Assembly: GCA_026683435.1 (NCBI GenBank)
Contig: GCA_026683435.1_4866.1
DNA from: a phage
Strand: one strand, 5' to 3'
DNA length: 64,000 nt
Positions 39,551-45,611 of this stretch are shown here, piece after piece; the first letter of the stretch is position 1, and every line of letters starts with the position of its first letter. The position numbers and the translations under genes were made by a program. The notes below the pieces were generated by a model, which saw only the letters and a program-made list of their open reading frames with translations, ran no database searches and had not been told where the DNA came from.

Positions 39551-39922
39551 TTAAAACCCCGCAACGACTGCAGCCATAAAGTCATGGACGACTTTACGTT
39601 GTTCTGCAAGCGGGTAGCCAAATTTAGTAATGTCGTGCATCCACCGAACTCGGTGGGTCCGACCATCGTGACTGAATGTGGAGCGCAGTACCAGGAAATA
39701 ATCCGCACTGACTCGAAAATGTAACGAGCAGCTGCCATGTTTGGCTCGCACGGTCAACTGAATACGCTTTACACCGCCGCCTAAATACTTAGCGTCGATG
39801 TCGACCTGGTCAACCTCCGGCACAGCCCGTAAGGCTTGCGCGACGTCTTCCAGGTCCCCGTTCTTGCTCACATTAGCGCCATGGAGCGCTGCGGTACAGA
39901 GTTGAAGCTCTCGATAGAACAT
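39551..39922 (-). CDS. hypothetical protein (123 aa)
   Basis: ORF track; overlaps next ORF by about 55 nt, start uncertain. Confidence 0.5.
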   Translation of the reverse strand: MFYRELQLCTAALHGANVSKNGDLEDVAQALRAVPEVDQVDIDAKYLGGGVKRIQLTVRAKHGSCSLHFRVSADYFLVLRSTFSHDGRTHRVRWMHDITKFGYPLAEQRKVVHDFMAAVVAGF

Positions 39923-40476
39923 CCTTCTAGTCTCCTGTCCCTCCCATAGTTCAAGGGATTTTTATAATACCAATCTTCATGCACAGGAGTCACGCGGATA
40001 TACCGGCTGTAAAACAACAAGTATTTGTAAAAGGTATCAATACTGACGTCTTTGTCCACTGATAAAAAGTAGTTTAAAGACGGGTCGTCTGGGAACGACA
40101 CAAAGATACCGGTGAAGTGCGCATCGGAATAGGGGCCATTAAACGGCGTCACTTCACACTTCAGGCAAGGTAAGCCAACCTGAAACGCGTTCTGTCCTGT
40201 CCAGTAGATTCCACGTGTGGTTGCATCGCGTGTTTTCCCATCGGGACGACAAACGATCCCTGCCATAAAACTGGAGCGTTGACTTGGGTCAGCCGCATTT
40301 AAGAACCGGATTATTCTGTCTACTGAAAAATATTTTAACGTGCCGGGCGGTAATTGCCAGAACTGTCCCATCGCACGTACCACCTTCCAACCAGGGCGAT
40401 TTCTTGCCCCGAAACGCTTTACACAAAAAGTATATCGCGAGCCAGTCTGATGTGGCACGCTGCGGACAGCCACCAT
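39868..40476 (-). CDS. hypothetical protein (202 aa)
   Basis: ORF track. Confidence 0.55.
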   Translation of the reverse strand: MVAVRSVPHQTGSRYTFCVKRFGARNRPGWKVVRAMGQFWQLPPGTLKYFSVDRIIRFLNAADPSQRSSFMAGIVCRPDGKTRDATTRGIYWTGQNAFQVGLPCLKCEVTPFNGPYSDAHFTGIFVSFPDDPSLNYFLSVDKDVSIDTFYKYLLFYSRYIRVTPVHEDWYYKNPLNYGRDRRLEGCSIESFNSVPQRSMALM

Positions 40477-40477
40477 G

Positions 40478-40954
40478 TTAAAGCTCCTTTACCATATCCT
40501 GGTATTCAGTTCGAAAACCGAAACGTTCATAAAACGCAATAGCACGGTCATTATTACCGAGCACGTTAAGCTGCATCCATGCGCAGCCTTTTGATTTGCC
40601 GTAATTTTCTACGGCTTCAATTAACTCATGACCGACGCCTTGAGAGCGAACTGATTCATCTACAAAAAAGTTATATACCCAGAGGAAACGTTGTCCCTTT
40701 TTGGTGTAGCCGAAGGTGATGAAACCAACAGCCACACCACGGTCATCAACGGCGCAAGCGCACAGCGTACCTTCACCCCAAACCTCCTCCAGTTTTGAGA
40801 TTTGATTAAACCCTTCACGACCGTTTAAGTCGGCGAGTTTTATTTTCTGATCGTCGTATAACTTGTTGTGTAGTCCTAACAAGTCGGCGTAGTATTTCTT
40901 TCCATACGGGGAGTTGGGCTTGGTGACAAAAACGATTTTCATCACACCCTCCAA
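40478..40954 (-). CDS. GNAT-family N-acetyltransferase (tandem paralog 1)
   Basis: Motif A RSQGVGHELIEAVENYGKSKGCAWMQLNVLGNNDRAIAFYERFGF; N-terminus MKIVFVTKPNSPYGKKY parallels the neighbouring paralog. Confidence 0.75.
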   Translation of the reverse strand: MEGVMKIVFVTKPNSPYGKKYYADLLGLHNKLYDDQKIKLADLNGREGFNQISKLEEVWGEGTLCACAVDDRGVAVGFITFGYTKKGQRFLWVYNFFVDESVRSQGVGHELIEAVENYGKSKGCAWMQLNVLGNNDRAIAFYERFGFRTEYQDMVKEL

Positions 40955-41436
40955 TACATCTGGTAAGCACCTACCTTAAAGCCAGCTTTGTCGTAGAGCG
41001 ACTTCGCGGCAGCGTTACCGGCGTTCACGGACAGGTGAACAACTGTACACCCTTTTTCCGTTGCGGATTTCTTTACCGCATCCATCAACGCGGTGCCGTA
41101 ACCTTTACCACGTGCGCTGCTGCTAACGACCAGTGAGGATACCGACATCATCGTCACACCCTCTTCAGTCATCGTGCGGTATTGCGCAAAGCCATACAAG
41201 ACACCGTCGTCCACGACCGCCAGTAAACGACCCCGGAAGCGCTCGGCTAACGATTTAGCCGGCGTAAAACGGACATTAATACCCGTCTCTTTTCGATAGC
41301 TTTCTATTTCGCTTTTGTCCAGCTCGTTATAAAGCGCGAGGATATCTGTGGAATATTTCCTGCCGTTAGCCGTGTCTGGCCCCACTATGGTAATAATCTT
41401 CATCAGTTCACCTCGGCCAGCGATTGCTTCGTCCAC
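40942..41436 (-). CDS. GNAT-family N-acetyltransferase (tandem paralog 2)
   Basis: SARGKGYGTALMDAVKKSATEKGCTVVHLSVNAGNAAAKSLYDKAGF; N-terminus MKIITIVGPDTANGRKY. Confidence 0.75.
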   Translation of the reverse strand: MDEAIAGRGELMKIITIVGPDTANGRKYSTDILALYNELDKSEIESYRKETGINVRFTPAKSLAERFRGRLLAVVDDGVLYGFAQYRTMTEEGVTMMSVSSLVVSSSARGKGYGTALMDAVKKSATEKGCTVVHLSVNAGNAAAKSLYDKAGFKVGAYQMYWRV

Positions 41437-42536
41437 TCCATTAGACCCTCCGCCACGCGTACCAGTGCCGTGGTGAATGCGTCTTCCATTGCCATTGCAT
41501 TGCGATAGCGCAGAGTAGCTTCCTTCAGCTCAGCCCCTTCCAGGTTCTTAAGCTCGGACTTCATCGCTTCCACTTCTTCGTAAATGCCGGTGTAACCCAC
41601 AACACGGTTCTTTGTTCCACGTGCAGCAATAGATTTGATAAGTGCTTCCACAGCCTCTATTGCTTTCCCACACTGATGCATATCCAGCGACTTAATGGTT
41701 TCACCATACTCACCGTCACGCGCAATTGCCCAACTGACCTTACCACTATGGTGCTCAACCACAACGATATTTCCAGGGACAGGAAAAGCTTCCACCTTTT
41801 TAAAGGGATCGATGATGCCAAGCAACCCAGCAGCACGCTTAACTGCCCAGTTCGTGGACTTGCTGATTTGTTTTAAGCCCGGCCCTTCGAATGCTTTGCT
41901 TTTCTTCAGAGCAGTGCGTGTGTAAACCGTGTACTTTTGCACGACGCCTTCGTACGCATTTGTTTGTTTAGAAAACTTAACACACGCTTCAAAATCGGGT
42001 CGATCTTCAAAGCAAATTTTAGACGTCCAGCTACTCGTGTGAACGTCGACCGCAGCGAGTGTTTTGTGGTCATCTAACAGCGACATTCGCGTTTTAAGCT
42101 TATTGAGCTTACGTTCCATGAAAGCAGCTTTCGAAGTTATTTCTTTCAAACGGTCGGCTTGTTCTTTCGCTAGCGCTTCCGCGAAATCGTAAAAGCGTAA
42201 TGCGAGCTTTTTCGAGAGTTTACCCGCGCCCTTTGCGGTTGCACCTAGTCCGGCACCCACTAACTTTCCAGTACCTTTAACAGCTTTCGCAGTAATGCGC
42301 CCTGCTGCGCGATGGATGCCAGCCCGCGGGTCAGTATCAGTCATAAACTGAGCACGCTCCATCGCTTCGCGCGATTCACGAGCAACCAACATATCTTCAC
42401 CGTCGTCGGTTAAGCACCAACGCTGACGAATCGCGCAAACCGCAGGGAAGTCGGGCTTAACTCCCAGACCTTCGAGTGCGACCAGGCGATCGTAGTCGTC
42501 AGTCAGGACTTCTAAATCTAAATCGAGCGTCGACAT
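41403..42536 (-). CDS. hypothetical protein (377 aa)
   Basis: ORF track. Confidence 0.6.
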   Translation of the reverse strand: MSTLDLDLEVLTDDYDRLVALEGLGVKPDFPAVCAIRQRWCLTDDGEDMLVARESREAMERAQFMTDTDPRAGIHRAAGRITAKAVKGTGKLVGAGLGATAKGAGKLSKKLALRFYDFAEALAKEQADRLKEITSKAAFMERKLNKLKTRMSLLDDHKTLAAVDVHTSSWTSKICFEDRPDFEACVKFSKQTNAYEGVVQKYTVYTRTALKKSKAFEGPGLKQISKSTNWAVKRAAGLLGIIDPFKKVEAFPVPGNIVVVEHHSGKVSWAIARDGEYGETIKSLDMHQCGKAIEAVEALIKSIAARGTKNRVVGYTGIYEEVEAMKSELKNLEGAELKEATLRYRNAMAMEDAFTTALVRVAEGLMEWTKQSLAEVN

Positions 42537-42849: not shown

Positions 42850-43449
42850 TCATAATAAGCACAAGCTCTCAAGCCACAGATGTCCTTCAAGCGCATGGTG
42901 GTAACAAGGAATACCACACTGCTTAGCGTATTTCACGCCCATGGCAGTACCGCCGGTCGGATTACCTTGTTTATCTAAAGGCGCAGAGTAATAAACTGCG
43001 TCTACAGGCGTTGCTAAATCATCGCCCATAATTATATTCAGATTACGGCCATGAAGCGCCCAGGCGAACTCCTGGAGCTTTTCTGGCGCGGGATGAAGCT
43101 TACCTACTATCTCACGATAGCGGTCATCCTGAGGGATTACACGGAACTCTACGTTGGGATTCTGTTTCTTGAGCCAGAGCTTTTTCTCATCGGGTAGGTA
43201 ACAAATGAACTCATCATCCCACGCCACTTTCTTGCCGGTATCTTGGTCTATTGTATTCGCCCACTGTCGGGCAAATCGGAATTGCAATTGGTCTGGACCA
43301 CACCAGCAGCCGCCAGAAGAAAAATGAATCGTGTAATCTTTGGCGTGCAGCGCATTAAACCCACGTAACAATCGCATGTACATTTCAGACATGGTATCTT
43401 CATCAGTCTTCCGAGAACCGATTACCGCAATTTTATAAATCTTTTTCAT
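42850..43449 (-). CDS. DprA/SLOG-like Rossmann-fold protein (tentative)
   Basis: IAVIGSRKT...FSSGGCWCGPDQ resembles the DprA/SLOG GSR...SGG.G.D pattern. Confidence 0.35.
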   Translation of the reverse strand: MKKIYKIAVIGSRKTDEDTMSEMYMRLLRGFNALHAKDYTIHFSSGGCWCGPDQLQFRFARQWANTIDQDTGKKVAWDDEFICYLPDEKKLWLKKQNPNVEFRVIPQDDRYREIVGKLHPAPEKLQEFAWALHGRNLNIIMGDDLATPVDAVYYSAPLDKQGNPTGGTAMGVKYAKQCGIPCYHHALEGHLWLESLCLL

Positions 43450-43484: not shown

Positions 43485-43527
43485 GAAAAAAATAAATACC
43501 TACCCTCGCTAAACGGGCGAGGGTAGT
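43485..43527 (-). terminator. hairpin terminator after gene 43531..44148
   Basis: taccctcgc...gcgagggta preceded (plus) by aaaaaaataaat. Confidence 0.6.
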
Positions 43528-44195: not shown

Positions 44196-44231
44196 AAAAT
44201 AATAAACAGTATAGGGGCCGAAGCCCCTATA
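44196..44231 (-). terminator. hairpin terminator after gene 44240..44629
   Basis: ataggggc-cgaa-gcccctat preceded (plus) by aataataaacag. Confidence 0.65.
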
Positions 44232-44239
44232 CGCTGTGT

Positions 44240-45125: not shown

Positions 45126-45611
45126 TTAGACGAAATGACCTTCTGCCATCGAAAGAAAAATGGGAACGCTTTCAGCGTAATGAGTTAAAAACTTTTCCTC
45201 CGGTGGCGTGTGTGACGAAATAACATTGTAGTTCGTCATACGAAAATACCGTTGGCCGTCAGCAGCAATATACCATCGGTCAATCTGGAAGCCTTGTTGG
45301 TGAAAGAATCCTAGCGCGGGAATGTTGGTCGGGTGAACACGACAGCTGATGTGTTTACGATCGGAGTTCTGCTGAAGATACTTAAGCATAAATCTGCCGA
45401 CACCGCCCCGCCGCGATTCTTCGGGCACTACCATATAGACCAAATGGCCAGGTTCCCATGCCATGATTCCCCGCACGATATCATCCTCAACAAACATCGT
45501 GAGTTTAATAGGCTCCTCGCGGATACTGTTTAAGTCGCGCACCCATTCAACCAGTTCAGGATAAACATTCGCGGGAATCTTATCCTCGACCACATTAATA
45601 ACAAGCATCAC
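45126..45611 (-). CDS. GNAT-family N-acetyltransferase
   Basis: Motif A VVPEESRRGGVGRFMLKYLQQ and ...ALGFFHQQGF. Confidence 0.65.
   Translation of the reverse strand: MMLVINVVEDKIPANVYPELVEWVRDLNSIREEPIKLTMFVEDDIVRGIMAWEPGHLVYMVVPEESRRGGVGRFMLKYLQQNSDRKHISCRVHPTNIPALGFFHQQGFQIDRWYIAADGQRYFRMTNYNVISSHTPPEEKFLTHYAESVPIFLSMAEGHFV

Follow-up and report, generated by a model that had tools for sequence, protein, structure and literature searches.

Organization of the GNAT locus

The DNA analyzed here, called the window, is a stretch of 64,000 nucleotides from a jumbo phage that belongs to the genus Seoulvirus and is SPN3US-like. Two adjacent GNAT genes lie on its minus strand, the upstream one termed A and the downstream one B, in a region of 2.8 kb that shares 98.0% identity with Escherichia phage vB_EcoM_Lh1B and 96–98% with ~34 records of Salmonella, Escherichia and Proteus phages. 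An earlier note on this DNA had described adjacent GNAT genes in tandem, and two minus-strand ORFs do indeed run head to tail at 40478–40954 and 40942–41436. Those coordinates are of the longest ORFs, with A read from a GTG at 41436 and B from a TTG at 40954, and from them the note had derived a gene overlap of 13 nt. The MKI starts of the two proteins are the ATG codons at 41403 (A) and 40942 (B), each with a Shine-Dalgarno site upstream on the minus strand: GAGGT at 41410–41414, 6 nt 5' of the ATG of A, and GGAGG at 40948–40952, 5 nt 5' of that of B. Because the alternative TTG start (40954) falls within the Shine-Dalgarno site of the ATG, and because the ATG is the start of B in almost every annotation and gene call, the 13-nt overlap shrinks to a single nucleotide shared by stop and start (TGATG). 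Read in this way, A occupies 40942–41403 (minus strand; ATG at 41403, TGA at 40944–40942) and codes for an accessory paralog of 153 aa with a pI of 9.4, and B occupies 40478–40942 (minus strand; ATG at 40942, TAA at 40480–40478) and codes for the conserved copy of 154 aa; these lengths match most annotations and gene calls.

The pair is embedded in a dense minus-strand string made up of a DprA-like gene, gp93, the internal head protein gene gp94, A, B and gp96 through gp99. The upstream neighbor, a homolog of the SPN3US internal head protein gp94 (41403–42536, minus strand; 377 aa; PHROG 2497 at 6e-88), is translationally coupled to A, and the 1-nt TGATG overlap is found at both junctions, i.e., between the head protein gene and A and between A and B. 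At the first (TGATGAAGAT, 41396–41405, minus strand) the stop of the head protein gene overlaps the start of A, and at the second (TGATGAAAAT, 40935–40944, minus strand) the stop of A overlaps the start of B. In all relatives examined, a GNAT gene comes after the head protein gene. Strong terminator-like hairpins at 43526–43500 and 38009–37988 probably delimit one transcription unit; a scan for sigma-70 promoters showed no enrichment (10 found against 10 expected), a comparison that is uninformative for a phage with its own RNA polymerases. A third GNAT gene at 45126–45611, the homolog of SPN3US gp88, was considered as a further paralog and set aside, as its product has no BLASTP similarity to A or B. 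Public records already annotate both A and B as GNATs, and the pair is real but ordinary.

Homology, fold and catalytic features of A and B

Both proteins are recovered by the Pfam Acetyltransf_1 model (PF00583) far above its gathering cutoff of 20.7 bits, A with 64 bits (1.9e-17) and B with 65 bits (9.3e-18). The pairwise alignment proposed in the earlier note as a check was borne out, with homology running from end to end and including the N-terminal part: BLASTP aligns the two at 34% identity over 149 aa (E 1e-20), and an hhalign comparison of the A and B family profiles gives 99.8% probability (E 1.5e-27) across columns 1–145. Both also belong to the phage family PHROG 3810 ("acetyltransferase"), B matching it at 2.3e-59 with residues 1–154 on profile positions 1–153 and A at 6.9e-25 with residues 1–149 on profile positions 1–149.

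The N-terminal motif that the note had seen in both proteins is significant on its own: residues 1–30 alone reach a BLOSUM62 local score of 69, against 17.5 +/- 3.7 in shuffled sequences, and none of 5000 shuffles attained that score. In this part 12 of 28 residues are identical between A and B, and all 16 members compared from the two families have G14, Y17, L24, N26 and L28. The spacing in the pattern as first written was off by one, the motif proline being residue 9 in both proteins. In corrected form the motif, MKI.x.xxPxxxxG(K/R)KYxxD(I/L)LxL(Y/H)N(E/K)L, spans codons 1–28 of A (41320–41403, minus strand), where it covers b1 (residues 2–6) and the start of a1/a2, and likewise codons 1–28 of B (40859–40942, minus strand), where it covers b1 plus a1/a2.

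The same note had taken this region for an extension preceding the acetyltransferase core, a view at odds with the structural models. The AlphaFold2 models (pLDDT 88.5 for A and 93.9 for B) have the same predicted topology in both proteins, namely b1 (2–6), a1 (12–16), a2 (18–40), b2, b3, b4, a3, b5, a4 and b6, which is the complete canonical GNAT order in a single domain. In Foldseek, either model aligns from end to end with solved GNATs that consist of one domain of ~150 aa; the best TM scores are 0.79 for B (to BH1408) and up to 0.72 for A, and the matches include BH1408, SSAT, SSAT2, NatD, AAC(3)-I and PaiA. By the models, by these structural alignments and by the PHROG 3810 profile, which aligns from position 1, residues 1–40 are the b1-a1-a2 of the fold; there is no extension, because a single GNAT fold takes up all of the 153 or 154 aa. 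On the modeled structures, the N-terminal motif is rather a clade-specific signature of b1/a1. The b1-a1-a2 segment of the GNAT fold contributes one wall of the acceptor pocket, and in A and B too it would be expected to form such a wall.

The features that define GNATs, an (R/Q)-x-x-G-x-(G/A) loop and an a4 tyrosine, are present in both proteins. The acetyl-CoA pyrophosphate-binding loop after b4 reads R98-G-K-G-Y-G103 in A and R99-S-Q-G-V-G in B, the conserved a4 tyrosine is Y137 in A and Y138 in B, and the arginine and both glycine positions of the loop as well as the tyrosine are invariant across both families. In each enzyme a primary amine would receive the acetyl group of acetyl-CoA, and the a4 tyrosine would probably be the general acid. 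Since it keeps R98-G-K-G-Y-G and Tyr137, A is most likely catalytically competent. B is very probably an active enzyme, given its intact acetyl-CoA loop and Tyr138 and the strong purifying selection acting on it (omega ~0.04).

Gene B and the phage spermidine acetyltransferase lineage

The product of B is 100% identical in amino acid sequence to SPN3US gp95 (SPN3US_0095 / ACQ60_gp171 / YP_009153389), annotated as a GNAT acetyltransferase. By tblastn it is found at 100% identity in SPN3US and ~22 other Seoulvirus records, and at 43–88% identity it fills the corresponding slot of further SPN3US-like Salmonella phages and of many Erwinia jumbo phages (pEa_SNUABM_29, phiEaH2, Asesino, Huxley, Machina, Caitlin, ChrisDB and Wellington, among others); it is kept in every relative examined.

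Phage-encoded polyamine acetyltransferases have been shown only recently. Li et al. (PNAS 2023) expressed three phage GNATs in E. coli BL21 delta-speG: the enzymes of phiEaH2 (YP_007237670) and vB_EamM_Caitlin (YP_009292176) made N-acetylspermidine, whereas SPN3US YP_009153389, i.e., the protein identical to B, gave none above background in the same assay (PMC9992855). B is the syntenic ortholog of the two enzymes that are active on spermidine, sharing 72% identity with that of phiEaH2 and 53% with that of Caitlin (154–155 aa), and their genes lie directly after the internal head protein gene, as in the window. A belongs with these enzymes to the same compact clade and shares their N-terminal motif, but at 31–34% identity it is a paralog only, and phiEaH2 and Caitlin carry no copy of it. 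B is an ortholog within the spermidine N-acetyltransferase lineage rather than a proven spermidine acetyltransferase, and poor expression or a shift in acceptor may underlie the negative assay of gp95. The link between B and this characterized lineage, together with the published negative for the identical protein, is new here.

A more distant parallel can be drawn with the cellular polyamine acetyltransferases, i.e., human and mouse SSAT, SSAT2, Bacillus subtilis PaiA and E. coli SpeG, which at ~20% identity catalyze the reaction that would be expected of B by orthology. SSAT, SSAT2 and PaiA have the same GNAT fold and are among the top Foldseek matches of B, and SSAT2 is also a PDB sequence match of B (5e-6). 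SpeG is a larger, allosteric dodecamer. In an alignment made by eye, the acidic polyamine-binding pair of SSAT (E92-D93, at the start of b4) would have its counterpart in Y-N of B and in S-S of A. Neither protein reaches any NCBIfam equivalog cutoff (for B against PaiA, 23.6 bits with a cutoff of 250), and no SpeG model is among the 25 NCBIfam families listed for A or for B.

Distribution and age of gene A

The distribution of A is of a different order. Within the phage collection it is found at 100% identity in only Lh1B, EC001, JN03 and 1252, the next best matches being B orthologs at ~34%; it is present in 4 of ~23 intact Seoulvirus records and absent in SPN3US and ~19 others. A word-indexed search of 5.8 billion proteins recovered only four A clusters (at 99%, 85% and 76% identity, plus a fragment), and when 1.84 billion representatives were searched exhaustively with phmmer, one further member was added, P0019, at 49%. 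Beyond P0019, phmmer finds only compact phage-type GNATs with the N-terminal motif, at 27–36% identity, and ordinary GNATs match A only in the core, at residues ~58–145. Besides the four phage records, a few assemblies carry A. A scan of metagenomes found A in only two contigs, both of 242 kb and carrying an identical A, and scans of IMG/VR and of GTDB genomes found no A-family members.

All A-family members whose genomic context was examined have an internal head protein gene on one side and a B-type gene on the other, and this order of head protein, A and B is seen in four lineages, which we denote the window type, L003, L007 and L014. In L003 and its companions (L003–L006) the flanks are 97–98% identical to the window in nucleotides, with A at 84% and B at 99% in amino acids. 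In L007 the flanks are at 70–80%, A at 76% and B at 73%, all in amino acids, and in L014, a Caitlin-like contig, A is at 48% and B at 53%. Within each of the four genomes that carry both genes, A and B are only 27–35% identical to each other. Between the window and L007 the two have virtually the same pN (0.163 for A and 0.162 for B), and A is itself under purifying selection (omega ~0.12). In a neighbor-joining tree, A and B fall into separate clades with bootstrap support of 100% and 98%, A together with P0019, P0030 and P0032 and B together with P0052 and P0023, although with ~150 columns at ~30% identity the deep branching of this tree is uncertain.

The occurrence in the same slot, the low identity between A and B, the equal pN and the separate clades point to an old pair that has co-diverged with its neighbors. 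A recent or lineage-specific tandem duplication is contradicted by the 27–35% identity in each genome and by the separate clades that A and B form with other members. Thus, the tandem duplicated pair of the earlier note stands insofar as these are true paralogs in tandem (34% identity, E 1e-20), with the duplication itself moved to the deep past.

Probable loss, and allele exchange, of gene A

What is missing in SPN3US and in most Seoulvirus records is precisely the 461-bp unit of A. Two nearly identical junctions flank this unit in the window, TGATGAAGAT (41405–41396) and TGATGAAAAT (40944–40935), jointly TGATGAARAT. SPN3US has a single TGATGAAAAT junction, with the head protein gene directly abutting gp95, so that the gp95 locus has the same neighbors as B but no A. 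A parallel is provided by L014, which has A, and Caitlin, which does not: here the head proteins are 89% and the B proteins 85% identical, the flanking proteins are at 84–89%, and the ATG of B in Caitlin directly follows the spacer found upstream of A in L014. These comparisons suggest at least two precise excisions of the whole gene unit of A, one toward SPN3US and one toward Caitlin. The matching divergence of A and its surroundings would favor repeated loss of A over repeated homologous transfer into the slot. The similar stop/start junctions, together with the conserved first codons, which are part of the motif, would supply the microhomology for the loss of the unit.

A has also been subject to exchange within the gene. 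Its codons 1–62 show zero differences between the window and the L003 allele, and codons 63–153 (40945–41215, minus strand) are only 65% identical in nucleotides, with 95 mismatches in 271 positions, and 74% identical in amino acids; outside this tract, the 2.7 kb compared are 97.7% identical. Judging from this juxtaposition, the tract is a sharply bounded recombination tract replacing the C-terminal 60% of A. A is recognized here as a rare, optional and recombining paralog.

Functional interpretation and its alternatives

The A family is uniformly basic, with pI values of 9.2–9.6, whereas the B family is neutral to acidic, including the two active spermidine acetyltransferases at 5.6 and 6.1. 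The best PDB sequence matches of A are PA4866-type enzymes (methionine sulfoximine / phosphinothricin-class), tabtoxin-resistance and AAC(3) enzymes, and those of B are BH1408, SSAT2 and YpeA; both the pI split and the PDB matches are weak indicators, as net charge predicts the specificity of GNATs poorly. Of the two proposals that the earlier note had made for the pair, a heterodimer or diverged substrate specificity, the latter, i.e., that A and B have come to differ in their acceptors, is plausible on these sequence features. B would most likely act on host polyamines or a close analogue, and A would most likely acetylate a different acceptor, which would make it an accessory enzyme that varies among strains and not a subunit of B. 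The best explanation, to which we attach moderate confidence when it is taken as a whole, is that A and B are ancient paralogs in a compact, jumbo-phage-associated GNAT clade (PHROG 3810) and act as independent single-domain enzymes, with B belonging to the spermidine lineage and A being optional and having another acceptor. No new mechanism is implied beyond the annotated GNAT pair.

A different kind of substrate would be involved if one or both were protein acetyltransferases, with targets among host proteins, comparable to the action of phiKMV Rac on the alpha subunit of RNA polymerase, or in the internal head protein or other ejected proteins. This we regard as unlikely, though it is the alternative with the most to recommend it. 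The conserved position next to the internal head protein gene and the translational coupling to it, both seen in all relatives, would fit it. gp94 has been detected in SPN3US heads (PMC10052503). The structural neighbors include NatD, Ard1, RimI and Naa50, and RimI is also a weak NCBIfam match; these N-terminal acetyltransferase matches are, however, generic for the fold, with scores about the same as those of SSAT or AAC enzymes. The basic surface of A would disfavor the binding of cationic polyamines, and modification of host proteins has been suggested for jumbo-phage GNATs (PMC7824862). phiKMV Rac and the further phage GNATs so interpreted are likewise small, phage-encoded and possibly devoted to host takeover, but no specific sequence relationship was detected, and the B lineage differs from the Rac type by its demonstrated small-molecule substrate: orthologs of B acetylate spermidine in vivo. 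Further, gp95 is not mentioned in the main texts of three studies of SPN3US virion and head proteomics or in one supplement, which is an absence of mention and not proof of absence.

One could also envisage a closer functional tie between the two genes, in which the optional A is a strain-variable specificity module of phage polyamine/amine acetylation. As such, A might restore or redirect a lost activity of B through a facultative A:B hetero-oligomer, or it might neutralize some other host metabolite or defense-related amine. We consider this improbable. Were it true, the recurrent loss of A and the swap of its C-terminal part would be traces of host-dependent selection, and in the A:B version the negative assay of gp95 would be explained.

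In its strict form, such a tie amounts to an obligate A:B heterodimer or hetero-oligomer, in which A supplies a specificity or activity that B lacks, and this too would account for the negative spermidine assay of SPN3US gp95. Many GNATs are dimers, and A and B are translationally coupled neighbors whose pairing is conserved in four lineages. Yet most Seoulvirus genomes, SPN3US included, are without A and have a 100% identical B, and in L003 B remains 99.4% identical despite the replacement of codons 63–153 of A (74% aa identity). The replaced part includes the C-terminal strands, which in GNATs usually make the dimer contacts. Thus B is 99–100% identical with A present, absent or half-replaced, which argues against an obligate partnership. 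While the protein identical to B was inactive alone in the spermidine assay, the B-type enzymes of phages without A, its orthologs, are active alone (PMC9992855), and the obligate form of the heterodimer proposed earlier is therefore disfavored and quite improbable.

As to origin, the alternative to an old paralog is that A arrived recently, either as a fresh tandem duplicate of B or by a new capture from a bacterium or an unrelated phage. Its presence in only 4 of the ~23 intact Seoulvirus records, the sharp difference between the window-type and L003-type alleles and a GC content of 51% (58% at third positions), higher than the 44% (47%) of B, could all be taken in this sense. The GC of A is nonetheless within the range of the neighboring genes. 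In each genome with both genes, moreover, A and B are too diverged for a recent copy, and A is found in the same slot where the flanks are only 39–80% identical, its divergence tracking theirs. The full-length relatives of A among the 1.84 billion representatives are only phage-type compact GNATs, with no close bacterial homolog. A recent arrival is on these grounds very improbable.

That A is a toxin of the TacT/AtaT type, acetylating charged tRNA and thereby shutting down host translation, is exceedingly improbable: it is basic (pI 9.4), small, dispensable and strain-variable, but no TacT, AtaT, KacT or ItaT chain occurs among its PDB sequence matches at E <= 1e-3 or among its 50 listed Foldseek matches, and it is adjoined by the head protein gene and by B followed by gp96 rather than by an RHH-type antitoxin gene. 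The PDB matches and the listed Foldseek matches of B contain no TacT, AtaT or KacT chain either. PADLOC likewise gave no match for A and one insignificant match for B.

The locus makes testable both why SPN3US gp95 failed the spermidine assay while its orthologs passed and what role the optional paralog A has where it is retained. A comparison set already exists in nature: A-plus (Lh1B, EC001, JN03 and 1252), A-minus (SPN3US) and A-mosaic (L003 type) phages are otherwise ~97–98% identical across the region compared.

Further acetyltransferases around the GNAT pair

A third GNAT gene, encoding a 161-aa homolog of SPN3US gp88, is found at 45126-45611 on the minus strand, the same strand as the paired GNAT genes A (upstream) and B (downstream), and 3.7 kb upstream of them. 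No similarity between its product and either A or B was detectable by BLASTP, and its NCBIfam matches are weak and generic only; it is thus an acetyltransferase independent of the A/B pair. In the distant SPN3US-like contig L018 (Logan DRR477421), a 301-aa protein with GNAT domain matches is encoded at L018:4400-5305 beside a D12 methyltransferase gene, and is a further acetyltransferase variant in the A/B neighbourhood; it lies a few genes downstream of the single B-type gene of that contig.

The B gene itself is matched only as 3-6 broken pieces in several records of the SPFM Salmonella phages (LR535901-LR535917), where its product is labelled a hypothetical protein. The fragmentation looks like the product of frameshift sequencing errors in the assemblies rather than of real pseudogenes.

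Flanking genes and putative signals

Downstream of B, the homologs of SPN3US gp96 (39868-40476, minus strand, 202 aa) and gp97 (39551-39922, minus strand, 123 aa) share 55 nt, which they read in different frames. Annotations or gene calls show this overlap also in Lh1B, SPN3US, the relatives L003 and L007, and the distant L018; it may be a long overlap that has been conserved, or else a site of recoding.

The stretch immediately 5' of the internal head protein gene, which directly precedes A, is also variable (L007:1529-2858; L014:1279-1632; L009:376-1365): relatives carry an additional gene with a BubE domain (PF20137), a second paralog of the internal head protein (328-330 aa), or both of these, and the window and SPN3US have neither. 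A 199-aa ORF at 42850-43449 (minus strand), for which RefSeq relatives give the annotation DprA-like DNA recombination-mediator protein, shows 70-98% conservation across all relatives examined and is clearly better conserved than the head protein next to it (39-99%).

A GC-rich hairpin with a perfect 10-bp stem (GTATAGGGGC-TTCG-GCCCCTATAC, 44209-44232) lies between the 205-aa and 129-aa ORFs and has a terminator score on each of the two strands; similar strong hairpins occur on the minus strand at 43526-43500, 46335-46312 and 38009-37988.
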